Shown: positions 6,801 through 36,574 of the stretch, piece by piece | Numbering within the stretch: the stretch's first letter is position 1 | Layout: each line of letters opens with the position of its first letter | Virus record (IMG/VR): IMGVR_UViG_2778261667_000012 | Coordinates: 1 to 37,406 of that record | Source of the DNA: a virus | Taxonomy: Duplodnaviria > Heunggongvirae > Uroviricota > Caudoviricetes | DNA length: 37,406 nucleotides | Direction: 5' to 3' (one strand) | Position numbers and translations under genes: made by a program | Notes under the pieces: generated by a model | What the model saw: only the letters and a program-made list of their open reading frames with translations | What the model was told of the DNA's origin: nothing | The model's database searches: none

Positions 6801-6816
6801 GTAACCACTATGCACA

Positions 6817-7051
6817 CACAAAAAAACCGCTTGCCATGCCGCAATCAGTCAGGTTACATTTCCGCTGCGCCTCATAAAACGGGTGCCGGGATTGGAACCC
6901 CGCAGACTAACAGAGCGCACAACCGCGCCAGCGGTTTTTTTGTGCGTGCCGTATCGCCACGTCTTTTTCGCGTCAGAATTATGGTGGGGCGTACAGGGCC
7001 AGCATCAGCTGGGCCGGGTCCTCTGTTAGCCGGTAGTTCCAACCCTGTACG
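6817..7051. ncRNA. Structured non-coding region; candidate sRNA or regulatory/ori-like element
   Basis: 15-nt perfect inverted repeat (6817-6831 / 6930-6944) ending in a T7 run, plus a second 9-nt inverted repeat (6990-6998 / 7043-7051). The overlapping ORF 6810..7427 is low-complexity. Confidence 0.25.
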
Positions 7052-7120
7052 TCTCACCACCCCGAGCTTGGAACCTCTGGATGGTGAGTTTTCAAAACTG
7101 ACTAACAGAGAGGCCACATC

Positions 7121-7351
7121 ATGGCAAACCGCAAACAGCACCGCGCTATCGCGGAGCGTCGTCACATCCAGACTGAAATCGACCGCAGACTCACCCGCGC
7201 TGCACACATCGCCTTTATCATGCAATCCAACACATTGCACAGACTCAACAGCACTATTTCAGCCGACTACTGCGCCGCTGTATTCAGCTATCTGGCGGAA
7301 GACCTCCTGTCTCTTCAGGATCTCATCCAGCAGCAAAACAAACTCCATTAA
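7121..7351 (+). CDS. Hypothetical small protein
   Basis: 76-aa ORF with a GAGAGG RBS about 8 nt upstream. Confidence 0.3.
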   Translation: MANRKQHRAIAERRHIQTEIDRRLTRAAHIAFIMQSNTLHRLNSTISADYCAAVFSYLAEDLLSLQDLIQQQNKLH

Positions 7352-7423
7352 TTCCTGTTCCGGGCCTTTCCTGCACCTTGCGGCGGGAGGCCTTCGCACA
7401 TCTGTAACAAGAGGATTGCCGCA

Positions 7424-7789
7424 ATGATTCTCGCCAACGACTTTCTTGAATACCTGCTCAACACAGAGCGTGATCTTGCCGTTCGCGTGCGTGAACGTTA
7501 TGACATGTACCTGAAATCCCTGCCTGTACCGCAGCTCGCTGACGGAAAGATTGTTATTGATGGTCGCTACATGATTGACAGCCACGAGGGAAATTACAGG
7601 CTTTACCGCATTGAAGGTGGCACCCCGTCCGTTATTGGCATTTACCAGCGCCCATCCTCTGCAATCGTCGATGTGATTGCCGACAGCATCCGCATCACAC
7701 ACCACCATGCCGACACAGAAGACACTGTGCTGGAGATTCAGCGGCTGGCTGCCGTTTGTCGTGACACTCTGAACGGAATGACGAAGTAA
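7424..7789 (+). CDS. Hypothetical protein immediately upstream of replication gene A
   Basis: 121-aa ORF; position is analogous to the small ORFs preceding A in P2. Confidence 0.5.
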   Translation: MILANDFLEYLLNTERDLAVRVRERYDMYLKSLPVPQLADGKIVIDGRYMIDSHEGNYRLYRIEGGTPSVIGIYQRPSSAIVDVIADSIRITHHHADTEDTVLEIQRLAAVCRDTLNGMTK

Positions 7790-7795
7790 ATCAGT

Positions 7796-10618
7796 ATGAC
7801 GACAGAGTACATCAGGGACTGGCAACAACCGCGCCACGCAGTAGGACGTGAAGGAACGGAGATCCCCGCACCTGAATCCGCACTTTCCTCCTGGCTGGAT
7901 GCCTACCGGGCAGAGAACGAACGCCGCCAGGAAATGGCTGATGCGGCGTTCTCCGCCACACCGCTGGGCAACCTGATTAATAAAAGCCTGGACGCACAGG
8001 AAAAACAGGACAAAACCATCACACTGGCAGGAGACACCAGAAAGCAGGCACGCGGCGCGGTGGATGAAGCCATGGCCTCGCTGCGCCTGCTGCCGTCCTA
8101 TCTGCGCGATCCGCTTATTCGCCACCTCTCCTTCCTGCGCAAAAAACAGGAAGCTGATCGCCGGAAAGGCAAAAAGAGCTGGCAGGCTGAACGCTACGCG
8201 CGCGGAACCCTGCGCAAAATATTCGAACGCCTGGACCGCACCGACCACCGCTGGCTGACACCGGGTTATCGCTCCCTTGCCGGACACGAACGCCTGGATG
8301 ATTTGCTTTACCTCCCGCAGCTCAACAAACACCAGATACAGACGCTGGCCACCATGACGGCGGCGATGTTCAGCAGCACCTTCGAAAAACTCTGCGATGG
8401 CTTTGGCGCGACTGATGGCGAGCTGACCATGGATGTAACGCTGAAGGCGTATCAGATGCTGGCCCGCATGGCGTTACACCTGCACGCCATGCCTCCGCAT
8501 TATGACGCACTGACAACAGACAAAGACCGGAGGAACGAACCGGACACAGAACTGCTGCCGGGTGCAATCCTTCGCCTGACCTGTGCGGAATGGTGGAAAC
8601 GCAAACTGTGGCTGTTACGTTGCGAGTGGAGAGAAGAACAACTCCGCGCCGCCTGTCTGGTTTCCAGAAAAACATCGCCTTATCTGAGCCAGGACGCGTT
8701 AAGTGAGTTTCGCGCACAGCGCGAGAAAACACGCGATTTCCTGAAAAGTTTCATGCTGGAAAACGAAGACGGGTTCACGATTGATCTCGAGACAGTGTAT
8801 TACGCAGGAGTAAGTAACCCGGTTCACCGTAAGGCAGAAATGATGGCCACCATGAAGGGGCTGGAACTTCTGGCCGAAGCCCGTGGCGACAAAGCGGTGT
8901 TTCTGACTGTCACCTGCCCGTCAAAATACCACGCCACAACAGAGAACGGTCATCCGAATCCCAAATGGAACGGGGCCACCATGCGCGACTCCAGCGATTA
9001 CCTGGTTAACACGTTTTTTGCGGCGGTCCGCAAAAAACTGAACCGCGACGGCCTGCGCTGGTATGGCATCCGCACGGTGGAGCCTCACCATGACGGCACC
9101 GTGCACTGGCATATGATGGTCTTTGCTCATCCGGAAGAAATCGACGGCATCGTGGCCATCACCCGCGATATTGCCATTCAGGAAGACCGCCACGAGCTGG
9201 GTGATGACATAACTCCGCGTTTTAAGGCGGAGTACGTCGACGGCTCAAAAGGCACGCCAACCAGCTACATCGCCACCTACATCGGAAAGAACCTGGACAG
9301 CCGCGCCGTGGATGGCATCGACCCGAAAACGGGCAAGCCACGCGTTGACCACGAAACTGGAAAATCAATGACCGAGAGCGTGGAGCGCGCCATCGGCTGG
9401 GCGCGCCTTCACCGTGTCCGCCAGTTCCAGTTCTTTGGTATCCCCTCCCGTCAGGTGTGGCGTGAACTGCGCCGCCTTGCCAGCCAGATGGCACGCAACC
9501 CGGAAGGCCCACAACGGCTGAAGGATGATGCAATGGATGCGGTACTCGCTGCCGCTGATGCCGGGTGTTTTGCCACCTACATTGAAAAACAGGGCGGCGT
9601 ACTTGTTCCACGCAAGGACTACCTGATTCGCACCGCCTACGACCTCGCAGATGAGCTGAACGATTACGGCGAACAGAGCGTACAGATTTACGGGATCTGG
9701 TCGCCGCTCATCGGGGAATCCTCCCGCGTGTGCACGCACCCGGATAACTGGAAACTGGTAAGACGTAAACCTGAAGCAGAAGACAGCGTCCGCGAAAATG
9801 GTTTTGACCTTCAGGGCGGCCCTGCCGCCCCTTGGACTCGTGGCAATAACTGTCCCCGTGTACAGGAAACGGACAACAACGGGACAGAACAGCCGGAAGA
9901 ACGGCCAGCACCGTGGCCGCAGCTTCCTGACGGCGTTGATGTGGATGAATGGATGCGCTCACTGAAACGGCACAAACGCCGGGCGCTGATGCGTTCGCTG
10001 CGTGACAAACAGGCAAAAAACAGCAGTGATGAAATGCAGAACTGGTCACAGAGCCGCAAACAGCCACAGCCTTTGCCTGATAACCACGAGTTACTCGCTA
10101 AAGAATGGCGGGAATCTGCCGAATCTCTCGGCCTGCATATCGGTGAACAGCAGATGCAGCACCTGTTACGGGGCGGCAGCCTGTACGTTGACGGCAGCAT
10201 CATTGCACCGCAGGGATATGAAATTGTACGTAAACCGGATACCCGCCAGGACAGCCGAATCACGCAGCTCTGGCAACGCCTGAGCCGTAACCACGGCGTA
10301 AGCAGCACGGAGATCCGCCATAACCCGGTCGCCAGCTATCTGGAACAACTAGGGGCATCAGACCCTGAAGCCGCCGCACGCCTGGCATCCACACTTCAGC
10401 AAGACCAGAACACCATGAAAACCCCCGTTACCGTGCTTTCTGACATGCTGCGCGCCATCCGCGACGCAGAGCACGCACAGAGAATCAGTGAAACCACTGA
10501 ACGCGCCCACCGCAAAGCAGACCTGCTGCGGGGTAGCCTGACCAGTGGAAACAAAAAACAGACAGAAACGGGATTCACAAATCCCGTAAATGAGCAAAAA
10601 ACGTGCCGCGATATATGA
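7796..10618 (+). CDS. Replication initiation endonuclease (P2 gpA-like, rolling-circle)
   Basis: 940-aa ORF at the end of the early operon. Contains a VHWHMMVF HUH-type motif, and overall it matches the P2/186 A family as recalled; it has a C-terminal extension relative to P2 A. Confidence 0.8.
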   Translation: MTTEYIRDWQQPRHAVGREGTEIPAPESALSSWLDAYRAENERRQEMADAAFSATPLGNLINKSLDAQEKQDKTITLAGDTRKQARGAVDEAMASLRLLPSYLRDPLIRHLSFLRKKQEADRRKGKKSWQAERYARGTLRKIFERLDRTDHRWLTPGYRSLAGHERLDDLLYLPQLNKHQIQTLATMTAAMFSSTFEKLCDGFGATDGELTMDVTLKAYQMLARMALHLHAMPPHYDALTTDKDRRNEPDTELLPGAILRLTCAEWWKRKLWLLRCEWREEQLRAACLVSRKTSPYLSQDALSEFRAQREKTRDFLKSFMLENEDGFTIDLETVYYAGVSNPVHRKAEMMATMKGLELLAEARGDKAVFLTVTCPSKYHATTENGHPNPKWNGATMRDSSDYLVNTFFAAVRKKLNRDGLRWYGIRTVEPHHDGTVHWHMMVFAHPEEIDGIVAITRDIAIQEDRHELGDDITPRFKAEYVDGSKGTPTSYIATYIGKNLDSRAVDGIDPKTGKPRVDHETGKSMTESVERAIGWARLHRVRQFQFFGIPSRQVWRELRRLASQMARNPEGPQRLKDDAMDAVLAAADAGCFATYIEKQGGVLVPRKDYLIRTAYDLADELNDYGEQSVQIYGIWSPLIGESSRVCTHPDNWKLVRRKPEAEDSVRENGFDLQGGPAAPWTRGNNCPRVQETDNNGTEQPEERPAPWPQLPDGVDVDEWMRSLKRHKRRALMRSLRDKQAKNSSDEMQNWSQSRKQPQPLPDNHELLAKEWRESAESLGLHIGEQQMQHLLRGGSLYVDGSIIAPQGYEIVRKPDTRQDSRITQLWQRLSRNHGVSSTEIRHNPVASYLEQLGASDPEAAARLASTLQQDQNTMKTPVTVLSDMLRAIRDAEHAQRISETTERAHRKADLLRGSLTSGNKKQTETGFTNPVNEQKTCRDI

Positions 10619-10663
10619 AGCGCGCACAAAACAGGCAAAAGCGGGATTTAAAAATCCTGTAAA
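10566..10663. promoter_or_regulatory. Two palindromic about 25-bp repeats upstream of parM; candidate parC-like centromere/operator
   Basis: aaacgggattcacaaatcccgtaaa (10566-10590) and aaagcgggatttaaaaatcctgtaaa (10638-10663), each with a gggatt/aatccc dyad; read directly. Confidence 0.35.
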
Positions 10664-10694
10664 CAATTAATTAATCAACATAAGGAAAAGCGAC

Positions 10695-11654
10695 ATGAAA
10701 ATTTGTATCGACGACGGCTCCACCAACATCAAGCTGGCATGGACTGAGAACGGCGAACGCCGCAACGCCATCAGCCCGAACAGCTTCAAGTCGGAATGGT
10801 CTGCGCCGTTCGGTGGCACGCAGCCCGCGAACTACATGCTTGATGGCGTGCGCTATGGTTTTGATCCGGTCAGCGACCGCTTTGTCCAGACGACCGACAC
10901 GCAATACCAGTACAGCGATGTGAATGTCATTGCCATTCATCATGCGCTGGTCAAATCAGGCATCACGCCACAGGAGGTGGATGTGGTTGTCACCCTGCCA
11001 CTGAGCGAGTATTTCGACACAAACGCACAGCCGGACATGGCCAACATCAACCGCAAAAAAGCGAACGTTATGCGCCCGGTGGAGTACCAGAACGGCGAGG
11101 CATTCACTATCCGTAACGTGCGGGTTATGCCTGAATCCATTCCGGCTGGCTTTAAAGCACTGGCTGACATGAGTCCGTTTGAATCCCTGCTGATTGTGGA
11201 TTTAGGCGGAACCACGCTGGATGTGGCAAAGGTTCAGGGACAACTGGCAGGTATCAGCCAGGTGTTTTGCGATCCACACGTAGGCGTTTCCCTGATGGCC
11301 GATGCCGTGCTGTCGGTGATGGGCACTAACGGTATGCGCACCAGTCACCACATCGCCAATACCATTATCGAACATCGCCATGATGAAGCCTGGCTGCGCC
11401 AGCACATCCACAATGACGCGCATTACGACAGCCTGATGGCGGTTATTCGTGAAAAGGAAGAAACACTGAAACAACGTGTGATCCGTGCGCTGGCTGGTTT
11501 TTCCGGTTACGGGCGGGTGATGGTTGTCGGTGGAGGGGCGGAGATTGTGGCACCCGCTATCCGCGAAGCCTGCGGAGTTAATGCGACTTTCATCGCGGAC
11601 GGGGTGCCACAGTTTGCTCTGGTTAATGGGCTGTACGCAATGGATAAGGAGTAA
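10695..11654 (+). CDS. parM: Actin-like plasmid segregation ATPase ParM/StbA
   Basis: 319-aa ORF. N-terminus MKICIDDGSTNIKLAW… and motifs …QYSDVNV…, …VMPESIPAG…, …LIVDLGGTTLD…, …VMVVGGGAE… match R1 ParM closely as recalled. Confidence 0.9.
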   Translation: MKICIDDGSTNIKLAWTENGERRNAISPNSFKSEWSAPFGGTQPANYMLDGVRYGFDPVSDRFVQTTDTQYQYSDVNVIAIHHALVKSGITPQEVDVVVTLPLSEYFDTNAQPDMANINRKKANVMRPVEYQNGEAFTIRNVRVMPESIPAGFKALADMSPFESLLIVDLGGTTLDVAKVQGQLAGISQVFCDPHVGVSLMADAVLSVMGTNGMRTSHHIANTIIEHRHDEAWLRQHIHNDAHYDSLMAVIREKEETLKQRVIRALAGFSGYGRVMVVGGGAEIVAPAIREACGVNATFIADGVPQFALVNGLYAMDKE

Positions 11655-11658
11655 ATCA

Positions 11659-11973
11659 ATGACGACACCAACCAGACGAATAAGTTTCTATCTGAAGCCC
11701 GCCGTCGTCAAGAGCGAACGGGAGGCGTGCAGTTACCTCGACAGCCTGCCAGCCTCCGAACGCAGCCGTGCACAACGCGCGGCCTTTCTGGCGGGACTGG
11801 CACTCATAAAACGCGCCCCCGCACTGGCGTACTCGCTGGCAGAATGGTCGAGCGATGAAATCCGGTTACCCCCACAGCTGGCGCTCCCGGAGAAACCGGC
11901 ACAACCAGCAACGAAGAACGACAACGCTGCACAGCAGATGAAAAAGAACATTCAGGCTTTTTTTCCTGAGTAG
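11659..11973 (+). CDS. parR: ParR-like centromere-binding protein (start revised from the track's 11524)
   Basis: ATG at 11659 with an AAGGA RBS, 4 nt after the parM stop. …SLPASERSRAQRAAFLAGLAL… resembles the R1 ParR ribbon-helix-helix region as recalled. Confidence 0.7.
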   Translation: MTTPTRRISFYLKPAVVKSEREACSYLDSLPASERSRAQRAAFLAGLALIKRAPALAYSLAEWSSDEIRLPPQLALPEKPAQPATKNDNAAQQMKKNIQAFFPE

Positions 11974-11982
11974 CAAAAAGAT

Positions 11983-12021
11983 AAACTCAACGAGGCGACA
12001 CGGAATCGCCTTGTTGAGTTT
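11983..12021. other. Strong hairpin (16-bp stem) between parR and the ClpX-ZBD gene
   Basis: aaactcaacgaggcga-cacggaa-tcgccttgttgagttt read directly; no T-tract after it, so terminator function is uncertain. Confidence 0.3.
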
Positions 12022-12044
12022 ATACACTGAAAGGGCTGTTGATA

Positions 12045-12416
12045 ATGAAAGAACTGAATAAAAGCAAAATTATATCCATCATTTCTGAAATGGAAGACAT
12101 TATTAATCGTGAAAACATGACATCAGAACAATTACTGAGTTGTGCAATTATTATTGATGAGCGCAATAAAAAAATTCAAAGACTGGCATCAGGGCGATCC
12201 CTGCGCCTGAAAGAGCAACACTTAACTTCATGCAATTCGCAATATCGGGACGGTAAAAAACTATATTGTTCATTTTGCGGAAAATACCAGACTGAAGTGG
12301 AGAGGCTCATTGCAGGGCCTTCTGTTTATATATGCGATGAATGTGTTGATTTGTGTGTGGATATTATTAATGAGGGCAAATCAGACGCCGGAGATAAAAA
12401 CAACAATACAAATTAA
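12045..12416 (+). CDS. Stand-alone ClpX N-terminal zinc-binding-domain protein with an unknown about 70-aa N-terminal domain
   Basis: C-terminal …[39 protein letters not shown]… is near-identical to the ClpX ZBD (Cys4 ligands present), but there is no AAA+ domain. The gene is markedly AT-rich. Start taken at the ATG at 12045 (the track's 12039 is a TTG). Confidence 0.7.
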
Positions 12417-12421
12417 GAAAA

Positions 12422-12462
12422 CCCGGAACGGGTGCGCAAATTCTTTGCGCGCCCGTTCCGGG
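12422..12462. terminator. Intrinsic terminator hairpin, mainly for the minus-strand late transcript
   Basis: About 18-bp GC-rich stem (cccggaacgggtgcgcaaa / ttgcgcgcccgttccggg) with an A-tract on the plus side, giving a U-tract on the minus strand. Confidence 0.5.
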
Positions 12463-12699
12463 TTGGACAAGCGAAGCGCGTCAGTCGCCGTAGCAGGGTG
12501 AATCCACATCGCAAATACGTTTATCGCTGAATTTAAGTTCATCAAACATTGCTTCTCGCTTGCAGACTGTATTTAATATTTTGGGGGTTCAGAGGCGGCT
12601 CCCCAAAAAAGTTGATACCGCCTAGTTGGTCACTTCGTCGTCAGACTGGGACTCCAACCACGCCAACTGAGAGGTTGGCACAATCTTCTCCCAAAAAAG

Positions 12700-12960
12700 C
12701 TACGACCCCGTCTGCAACAATTCCAGCGCCATCTGTTTTTCTTCCGGACGCATCCGCTCAATCAACAGCTTTAACACACCATTCTCCAGCCCGCTGGGCA
12801 CCAGTGTGTGCGAGTAGGTCAGATTCATCACCCAGGTATGTCCGCACTCGAGACGGGTGCAACGGTAATACACATCAGCAAACTGATCGGTTTTCCAGGC
12901 TGTTTTCTCAATCACTGCATGTGCACCGCAGCAATGACACCGCGCCTTCTGTCTGCGCAT
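12700..12960 (-). CDS. ogr: Ogr/Delta-family zinc-finger late-gene activator (start taken at the internal Met)
   Basis: …CHCCGAHAV…YRCTRLECGHTW… has the Cys4 pattern and size (about 86 aa) of P2 Ogr-type activators. Here it lies downstream of the portal gene rather than near int. Confidence 0.65.
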   Translation of the reverse strand: MRRQKARCHCCGAHAVIEKTAWKTDQFADVYYRCTRLECGHTWVMNLTYSHTLVPSGLENGVLKLLIERMRPEEKQMALELLQTGS

Positions 12961-13025
12961 TTTCCACCTCCCGGAACAGCGTTTTACTGCCGCCGATTTT
13001 ACCCGCTCTTTCCCCATACCGCACA

Positions 13026-14060
13026 TCACTCCATGGGTTCATCAAAATCAAGAATAAATTTCACCTCCCCCAGTCGTCTGATATCCGGGTCGCTGTTGAT
13101 CCCCTCCATAATCAGGCGACGCATCGGGATAACCTCATCCCTGTAATATGCCTCGCGGGATTTCAGCGGATCACCAAGCCCGGCCGTATTTGCGGGGATG
13201 ATGCCGGCAAGTCCGGGTGGGAAACGGTGCGCAACGAGCTGATCCTGGGCACTGATGGTTTTTATATTCAGAAACTCATCTTTTGTACCTGAATCCCCGA
13301 TAGGGATCACCTTAACGCCTTCTTTGTCTCCGCCCGGTATATTGATAAACATGGATTTAAAATTGCCCGCCCCTTTTGACGCCTCTATCTTTTTACGGAA
13401 TTCCGCCTCGAGCTCGGGATCCATGTCCGGGTCAGTGGAATACAGGATATAACCAAGATGTGCGCCGTTCTTGTAATACTTGCGGCGAAAGCGGGTGGCA
13501 TCCACATTCAGCATGGCGGATTCCATCCCGTGAATATAATCCGGGACACCGTAAACCTGCTGTTGCGGGTCATAAATGGCCACGAACACCACTTCGCCTG
13601 GCTGATAAACGAGATCTTCCAGTGCTGCCTGCACAATCACCGTGCCACCCTCGTTGTTACGCCGCAGGTACAGAGAAGGTAACGTATGCAGGCGCACCAC
13701 TCGACCGAAGCCATTGCGCACTTTAAGCAACCCCATATCCCCGAATATCAGCAGATTGGTTACTGCTGCCGCCATGGCGGCGTGTGTCATACCACCACCA
13801 CCCCGAAAACCCTGCATGATCATATTGACGCGCGCACGCAATACCGCGCCGTGATACGGTGCGATATTGGACAACATGGCGAGATCCATGCGCTCAATTG
13901 GCGGCGTGTACCAGCCGTTATAGCCATCCCAGAGCGAGCCGTAATAACAGCCCCATGCAGCGACCGGTTCCGGGTCACCAAATTCAATAAACGTCATTTT
14001 GCTGGCTGTTTTTTTTGCCACGCCATCGTGTAACACGGGGTATTTTTTCTTTTTACTCAT
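13026..14060 (-). CDS. Portal protein (P2 gpQ-like)
   Basis: 344-aa ORF, the same length as P2 Q, adjacent to and overlapping the large terminase gene. Confidence 0.85.
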   Translation of the reverse strand: MSKKKKYPVLHDGVAKKTASKMTFIEFGDPEPVAAWGCYYGSLWDGYNGWYTPPIERMDLAMLSNIAPYHGAVLRARVNMIMQGFRGGGGMTHAAMAAAVTNLLIFGDMGLLKVRNGFGRVVRLHTLPSLYLRRNNEGGTVIVQAALEDLVYQPGEVVFVAIYDPQQQVYGVPDYIHGMESAMLNVDATRFRRKYYKNGAHLGYILYSTDPDMDPELEAEFRKKIEASKGAGNFKSMFINIPGGDKEGVKVIPIGDSGTKDEFLNIKTISAQDQLVAHRFPPGLAGIIPANTAGLGDPLKSREAYYRDEVIPMRRLIMEGINSDPDIRRLGEVKFILDFDEPME

Positions 14061-36433: not shown

Positions 36434-36574
36434 ATGTCGCAAAAATCGCTTATGGCCATCACGTTCTGCGTGACGGCAATCCTCATCATCTGGATGCTGC
36501 ACGGTTCGCTGTGTGAAATACGGATGAGCTTCTGGGGAGCGGAGTTTGCGGCGTTCTTACAGTGTAAACAGTAA
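36434..36574 (+). CDS. Hok/Gef-family type I toxin (46 aa), not in the ORF track
   Basis: AAGGAG RBS. Translation MSQKSLMAITFCVTAILIIWMLHGSLCEIRMSFWGAEFAAFLQCKQ has an N-terminal TM helix, the LCEIR motif and an E(V/F)AAF C-terminal motif typical of Hok proteins. A 9-bp-stem hairpin follows at about 36586-36607. Confidence 0.55.
   Translation: MSQKSLMAITFCVTAILIIWMLHGSLCEIRMSFWGAEFAAFLQCKQ

Follow-up and report, generated by a model that had tools for sequence, protein, structure and literature searches.

The stretch of DNA analysed here (IMG/VR record IMGVR_UViG_2778261667_000012, positions 1 to 37,406; all of it is referred to below as the window) holds an integrated P2-family prophage of the P88-like type which, to judge from its sequence, carries an intact and apparently functional actin-type ParM/ParR module next to its replication gene A. 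The explanation that best accounts for the data, and one that we consider probable, is that parM and parR form a functional type II ParMRC module which, once the phage has infected a cell or been excised, segregates or positions its genome in the extrachromosomal circular form. This interpretation is based on homology, on the intact motifs, on purifying selection and on the conservation of both synteny and the layout of cis-acting elements. With it we infer that ParR binds two upstream palindromes and that the filaments are active, as well as when the genes are expressed and how the phage benefits. The first-pass annotation had claimed a complete ParM/ParR pair inside an integrated P2-family prophage, and this was borne out by Pfam matches, by R1 structures and by the glsA/integrase context. 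The features on which the argument depends are as follows.

7796–10618, + strand: gene A, replication endonuclease of 940 amino acids (aa) (Pfam Phage_GPA, 8.9e-131)
10552–10590: repeat 1, with palindrome CGGGATTCACAAATCCCG at 10569–10586, within the 3′ end of gene A (stop at 10618)
10625–10663: repeat 2, with palindrome CGGGATTTAAAAATCCTG at 10642–10659, 36 nt upstream of the parM ATG
10682–10687: ribosome-binding site of parM, AAGGAA
10695–11654, + strand: parM, actin-fold ATPase of 319 aa (Pfam StbA_N, 1.8e-82; ParM C-terminal domain, 3.2e-68)
11646–11651: ribosome-binding site of parR, AAGGAG
11659–11973, + strand: parR, ribbon-helix-helix adaptor of 104 aa (Pfam Plasmid_stab_B, 7.4e-25)

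ParM matched the R1 ParM structures 1mwk/4a62 over its full length (E ~2e-92) and was 47% identical, again over the full length, to ParM of R100. Residues of the phosphate-1, connect-1, phosphate-2 and adenosine motifs (D6, D7, G8, S9, T10 and K13; E147; D169, G171, G172, T173, T174 and D176; G279, G280, G281 and A282) were invariant in five diverged phage lineages and matched those of R100. Inactivating changes in the ATPase motifs, which the first-pass annotation had held to be fatal to its proposal, were looked for and the motifs proved intact. The true ATG of parR is at 11659, 4 nt past the parM stop, and the encoded protein was 44% identical to StbB/ParR of R100 over residues 6–67, which make up the DNA-binding domain, with a weak match to the pB171 ParR structure 2jd3 (E = 0.004). 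The earlier description of both proteins as closely resembling the R1 pair thus stands for ParM, while the resemblance of ParR is only moderate. PHROGs holds families for both proteins.

ParR is built of a conserved N-terminal DNA-binding domain, a hypervariable linker and a conserved C-terminal tail (KKNIQAFFPE). Across 50 distinct ParR sequences from 87 loci, the N-terminal strand MTTPTRRISFYLKP was common to all, the helical domain occurred in a few allelic forms and the tail followed the consensus (K/A)(K/G)NI(Q/R)x(F/L)FPE. The tail could be aligned with RQNASNLFP, MRKNAASLFP and similar sequences in distant phage lineages and with KKNAMKLIN of R100, giving a pattern KKN[A/I]xx[L/F] that extends from P88-type phages to R100, with N97 invariant and F102 nearly so. 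In R1, ParM is bound by the C-terminal peptide of ParR; a conserved tail beside a free-running linker would accordingly fit a working, predicted contact between ParR and ParM. Several ParR alleles exist and their linker is hypervariable, whereas ParM stays 98–99% identical. The window carries a rarer ParR type, closest to a copy on an E. albertii contig (locus L003).

When related prophages were searched for the same cassette, as the first-pass annotation had proposed, it was found in P88-like phages, in about 1300 Escherichia coli genomes and in four other genera. Starting at the 3′ end of gene A and running across parM as far as the 5′ part of parR, the DNA was 95–97% identical to that of named phages, among them Escherichia phage P88, Xuanwuvirus P884B11, 520873, 503458 and Citrobacter phiSM, and ParM was 95–99% identical to the proteins of P88 and related phages (98–99% except for phage 503458). 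Among complete E. coli genomes, parM was present in 1,303 of 5,426 (~24%), and 1,441 of its 1,443 places in them were chromosomal; hosts of the lineage include O157:H7 strains and a sequence type 131 (ST131, O25b:H4) host. The whole 10500–12500 stretch was present in no complete E. coli genome. The scan of genome contigs gave near-identical copies only, and the set of viral contigs consisted of 99% identical loci only, fit for population statistics and not for comparison with distant relatives. As a separate observation, a 226-kb contig labelled Vagococcus sp. (locus L005, NZ_JBQPOM010000071.1) has a P88-like parM with 97% identity; this contig is most likely enterobacterial contamination of the assembly.

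parM is under strong purifying selection. It was full-length in 86 of 87 related loci, with a mean pairwise ratio of non-synonymous to synonymous substitution (dN/dS) of 0.056 over 71 distinct alleles, and 143 of its 197 polymorphic sites fell in third codon positions. Of the 1,323 E. coli genomes with this type of gpA (the product of gene A), 1,279 had a near-full-length parM (~97%), and the GC content of parMR (54–59%) equals that of gene A. The nearest ParM proteins beyond the P88 type came from Hafnia (62% identity in the alignment), Plesiomonas (61%), Serratia (58%) and Enterobacter (54%). P2-like prophages of these four genera share one gene order, namely gene A, parM, a Plasmid_stab_B gene, variable cargo (HicAB and a KAP NTPase are examples), then portal and terminase. 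In a neighbour-joining tree (without support values) the ParMs of the four genera grouped with the P88 type; among the non-phage homologues sampled (48–51% identity), one from a 60-kb plasmid-like contig (P0060) joined in the next larger grouping, and those of an integrated plasmid-like element (P0075) and an integrative and conjugative element (ICE; P0104) fell outside it. parMR is therefore a conserved part of the backbone of the P88-like Xuanwuvirus lineage and its relatives, not cargo, and its association with these phages is old.

Upstream of parM lies a 39-nt direct repeat in two copies, 82% identical and 73 bp apart, each containing an 18-bp palindrome. The palindromic repeats described by the first-pass annotation are thus real, with the correction that repeat 1 lies within the 3′ end of gene A. 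In the 37.4-kb window the motif occurred at these two sites only, against an expectation of 0 from shuffled sequences, and over 85 P88-like loci the arms (CGGGA...TCCCG) were conserved and the centres variable. In three lineages (P88, Hafnia and Plesiomonas) a pair of GGG-N10-CCC elements was found, one at −125 to −131 and the other at −52 to −59 relative to the parM ATG, 72–73 bp apart and with unrelated spacer sequences; the window has both sites of this type, the second one ending in CCT, and Serratia and Enterobacter have a different inverted-repeat arrangement. The spacing between the palindromes is equivalent to about seven helical turns. By its position, which is that of parC in R1/R100, the pair of palindromes can be regarded as a candidate bipartite, parC-like centromere.

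Two other roles for the palindromes were considered and rejected. The first was that of a gpA origin. Gene A of the window is 30% identical to P2 A, and alignment with the annotated P2 nick site (P2 position 29892) placed the corresponding segment at gene A residues ~671–688:

~9826–9850: ori-like nick region inside gene A, GCCGCCCCTTGGACTCGTGGCAATAACTGT

The P2 ori 20-mer itself, searched for directly with up to three mismatches allowed, had no match. The nick-site homologue is roughly 720 bp upstream of the palindromes, and this location of the candidate centromere downstream of an ori-like region counts in favour of the partition role. The second was that of terminators of gene A, and here no + strand T-run followed the palindromes and only a weak − strand site was flagged.

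On the + strand between 10300 and 12700, terminator-like sites were detected at 11244 and 12302, and the stretch from gene A to parM had none. Upstream of parM, a search for consensus sigma-70 sites gave no hit, and manual inspection revealed weak AT-rich boxes only. Given that neither a terminator-like site nor a consensus promoter precedes parM, parMR is most simply read as the last part of the early replication operon, expressed while the phage genome exists as a free circle. The other boundary of the module is marked by a further feature.

11981–12023, + strand: hairpin with an 18-bp stem right after parR (−27.1 kcal/mol, z = −9.2)

This hairpin likely ends the transcription unit, and it is the left edge of the variable cargo hotspot between gpA and Q. 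Within parR the similarity of P88-like phages at the DNA level breaks off, and past the parR stop at least 20 different, unrelated sequences were counted among 80 loci. The interval between gpA and gpQ is a known hotspot of P2-like phages, occupied in P2 itself by tin and old (PMC9122126). In the window the hairpin is followed there by this gene.

12045–12416, + strand: ClpX-type C4 zinc-finger protein of 123 aa, the zinc finger in the C-terminal part (Pfam, 2e-19), without an AAA+ domain

The first-pass annotation had joined this gene with parM and parR in a three-gene accessory island, a grouping that does not hold. The zinc-finger gene has a GC content of 37%, is separated from parR by the hairpin, has its own promoter-like site (12019–12046) and recurs after parR, in versions of ~40% identity, in 19 of 86 other P88-like loci, P88 included, while parMR has the GC content of the backbone and is conserved. 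The marks of hotspot cargo, i.e. variable presence, foreign composition and signals of its own, are seen in the zinc-finger gene and not in parMR; the former is a recurrent AT-rich cargo gene outside the partition module. Its product could interfere with recognition of substrates or adaptors by ClpX. Also within the hotspot, just upstream of portal gene Q, an open reading frame (ORF) at 12700–13029 (− strand) encodes an Ogr/Delta zinc finger (Pfam, 1.3e-12), and the Hafnia and Plesiomonas relatives have an Ogr/Delta ORF at the equivalent place.

In the mechanism that we propose, the module would act from the distal end of the early replication block (cox ... A-parM-parR). ParR dimers would bind the two CGGG-N10-CCCG palindromes straddling the stop of gene A, which would thereby serve as a bipartite centromere; the conserved C-terminal tail of ParR would then capture the ends of ParM filaments, and ATP-driven polymerisation of ParM would drive extrachromosomal phage circles apart. 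The presumed substrate is the free circle present after infection or excision and replicated by gpA in rolling-circle mode, not a stably kept plasmid prophage. Such a system might ensure that both daughter cells retain a copy until integration takes place, or after transient excision, as with srpMRC of SXT/R391 elements, or it might organise replicating circles in space, as with AlpAC of the Corynebacterium glutamicum prophage CGP3. Both payoffs are plausible and the present data do not separate them.

Several points weigh against this proposal. The lytic pathway combines high copy number with cell death, and there is therefore no obvious gain in it from classical partition; a functional study of ParMR from the P2 family was not found in the literature. 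Transcription of parMR may come from read-through of the early promoter or from a weak promoter of its own overlapping repeat 2. The ParR of P88-type phages is without a segment of ~25 aa (TTxxxIxxxxxxVxP...) that is present in StbB of R100 and in the ParRs of Hafnia, Plesiomonas, Serratia and Enterobacter, and the candidate centromere consists of just two palindromes, compared with ten direct 11-bp iterons in R1. The palindrome centres showed no covariation with ParR alleles, type-b ParR occurring with both centre variants, and for this reason position and analogy are the sole grounds for assigning the putative binding of ParR. At the RNA level the palindromes would also form modest hairpins (−11 and −8.8 kcal/mol); changes in their arms were single-sided and therefore do not discriminate between a protein-binding site and an RNA hairpin.

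A bolder form of the proposal, which we put forward tentatively and hold to be possible rather than probable, is that this pared-down ParMRC, with two palindromes and a short ParR, acts in a hidden extrachromosomal phase of the phage, either in a facultative carrier or plasmid state or as an actin-like organiser of the genome circles derived from rolling-circle replication. If true, it would be the first such case shown in a Gram-negative integrating phage, and it would extend to roughly one in four P2-family prophages of E. coli and to their relatives in four or more further genera. Simple experiments could explain why strong selection retains a plasmid partition motor in a phage that integrates, and they would tell whether the P2 family has an overlooked free-circle phase with a bearing on lysogen formation, on prophage stability or on replication. 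The compact two-palindrome centromere could, in addition, serve as a minimal ParMRC model.

Among the alternatives, we consider it unlikely that ParMR is purely a cytoskeleton of the lytic cycle, positioning or dispersing the monomeric circles made by gpA for replication or packaging without any role in inheritance. The module does end the replication block with no + strand terminator-like or promoter-like site before it, P2 packages from circular monomers, and AlpAC offers a precedent. AlpC, however, belongs to a different and distant actin-like family, and the majority of phages in the P2 family replicate well with nothing of the kind.

That P88-like phages are facultative phage-plasmids, persisting for many generations as low-copy plasmids, appears improbable. 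A complete partition cassette and a Hok/Gef-type toxin, i.e. a plasmid-style stability function, in the same prophage would suit such a lifestyle, as would the ParM of the P1-like phage-plasmid D6, which is 47.5% identical, and the existence of a P2-like Burkholderia phage, KS14, that is a plasmid prophage (PMC3091744). Moreover, a complete P88-like genome from a cat E. coli isolate has been deposited as a circular 34,461-bp 'plasmid' (NZ_CP148288.1, locus L011). Its 7.1-kb segment from gpA through parMR to the portal gene is, however, 100% identical to the integrated copy in NZ_CP148378.1, a human isolate of similar strain name from the same study series, and because of this identity the circular record may represent a replicative form that had been excised and was captured in the assembly. 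The circle, too, encodes an integrase, as does the prophage of the window beside its host flank. KS14 has a plasmid-type RepB, whereas here the rolling-circle gpA alone was recognised, with no plasmid-type replicon among the proteins of that part of the window's ORFs which was scanned. With all but two of the places in complete E. coli genomes being chromosomal, the episomal or phage-plasmid existence offered by the first-pass annotation is unlikely as the main lifestyle, and stable plasmid lysogeny is much less likely than a role in segregating or positioning free circles.

There is only a slight probability that the module serves exclusion, incompatibility or defence by titrating or mis-pairing the centromeres of related phages, P4-type satellites or ParMRC plasmids. 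parMR lies between gpA and gpQ, adjoining the hotspot that holds tin and old in P2, and ParR has several alleles and a hypervariable linker. Against this, ParM, ParR and the zinc-finger protein had no match in PADLOC, parMR is conserved with variability starting only downstream, and neither the DNA-reading strand of ParR nor the arms of the palindromes differ between alleles. Rousset et al. class the system among those 'likely involved in other functions' (PMC9122126). Incompatibility with R1-type plasmids, another of the initial suggestions, is unlikely since the repeat motif and its layout differ from those of R100 parC. Finally, hardly any credence can be given to the pair being a decaying relic of an old phage-plasmid recombination without current function: an integrating phage does not obviously need a partition system, but the low dN/dS, the intact ORFs, the presence of parM in nearly all genomes with this gpA type, the synteny kept in five genera down to 54% ParM identity and a GC content like that of the phage backbone speak against decay, and the selection and synteny data already contradict it.

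The cassette itself is ordinary for this phage lineage. Reference phage records already annotate both genes, as ParM and partition protein. The cassette goes unmentioned in the P88 paper, and the phiSM paper merely lists it as a 'fitness' gene. Rousset et al. (2022) noted in passing that about a quarter of P2-like phages have a putative partition system, and likewise suggested the phage-plasmid idea in passing (PMC9122126). As the cassette is annotated in reference phages and was noted by these authors, both it and the main speculation about it were already known; what is added here is the evidence that parMR belongs to the backbone, its age and the phage-specific grouping of ParM, the bipartite palindrome layout and the case against stable plasmid lysogeny.

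The remainder of the prophage was surveyed more briefly. Its host flank is visible at the left end only, and the repressor is followed by the early block, which closes with gene A.

1–933: host glsA, left-end flank
1202–2239, − strand: tyrosine integrase
2294–2593, − strand: repressor

The glsA flank (1–1250) reached only 80–90% identity with almost all of the 5,423 E. coli genomes that it matched, and the host of the prophage is probably not a typical E. coli. Within an Ash-like ORF (6810–7427), Rfam identified an isrK Hfq-binding RNA at 6867–6941 (+ strand, 69.5 bits) and a C4 antisense RNA at 6977–7064 (+ strand, 78.5 bits), which together have the look of an antisense immunity element of the P1/P7 type, here within a P2-family prophage. 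A toxin of the Hok/Gef family (46 aa) is encoded towards the right end of the prophage, at 36434–36574 (+ strand; Pfam, 3.5e-07). The 1 kb around it matches prophage DNA annotated as Hok/Gef in ~1,680 E. coli genomes, and no Sok RNA was detected at the Rfam gathering threshold. R1 likewise combines parMRC with hok/sok; the toxin is a second plasmid-style stability function in the prophage, which lends weak support to some concern with loss of the element.

Among known systems, parMRC of R1/R100 (parA/stbAB) resembles the module in plan. The two share the order of cis site (a candidate one here), parM and parR, a ParM that is 47% identical with intact ATPase motifs, a ribbon-helix-helix ParR domain that is 44% identical, a KKNAxxL-type ParR tail and A-rich, CCC-containing cis elements. 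In contrast to those low-copy plasmids, the carrier here is an integrating P2-family phage; instead of ten direct 11-bp iterons, set in two blocks of five about a promoter, it has two 18-bp palindromes, the first within gene A, as its candidate centromere, ParR is ~25 aa shorter and the GC content is 55%, as in the phage backbone. The cassettes of P88, P884B11, 520873, 503458, phiSM and about 1300 E. coli genomes have the same gpA-parM-parR layout and the same two palindromes, the window differing from them in its rarer ParR allele and its divergent ClpX zinc-finger cargo gene.

Among elements that normally reside in the chromosome, SXT/R391 ICEs carry srpMRC, which stabilises the excised element and lowers its loss (PMC4489591). 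As in the window, this is a ParMRC-type system on a normally integrated element whose excised circle is replicated by a rolling-circle enzyme; unlike the window's phage, the ICE is conjugative, so that excision takes place without lysis, and SrpM is, according to its authors, only distantly related to R1 ParM (PMC4489591). The function of srpMRC was shown by experiment, whereas the module of the window is known from sequence. AlpAC is needed for efficient replication of circular CGP3 prophage DNA and is induced early (PMC4446434). It resembles the proposed system in combining, within an integrated prophage, an actin-like filament with a DNA-binding adaptor whose site lies upstream of the operon that encodes it, and differs in its Gram-positive host and its actin-like family. 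D6 (ParM type) and KS14 (ParA type) are, like the P88-like phages, temperate phages with plasmid partition genes, and the structural genes of KS14, which carries RepB and ParA (PMC3091744), are P2-like. Those two phages lysogenise as plasmids with plasmid-type replication functions, whereas the P88-like phages integrate.

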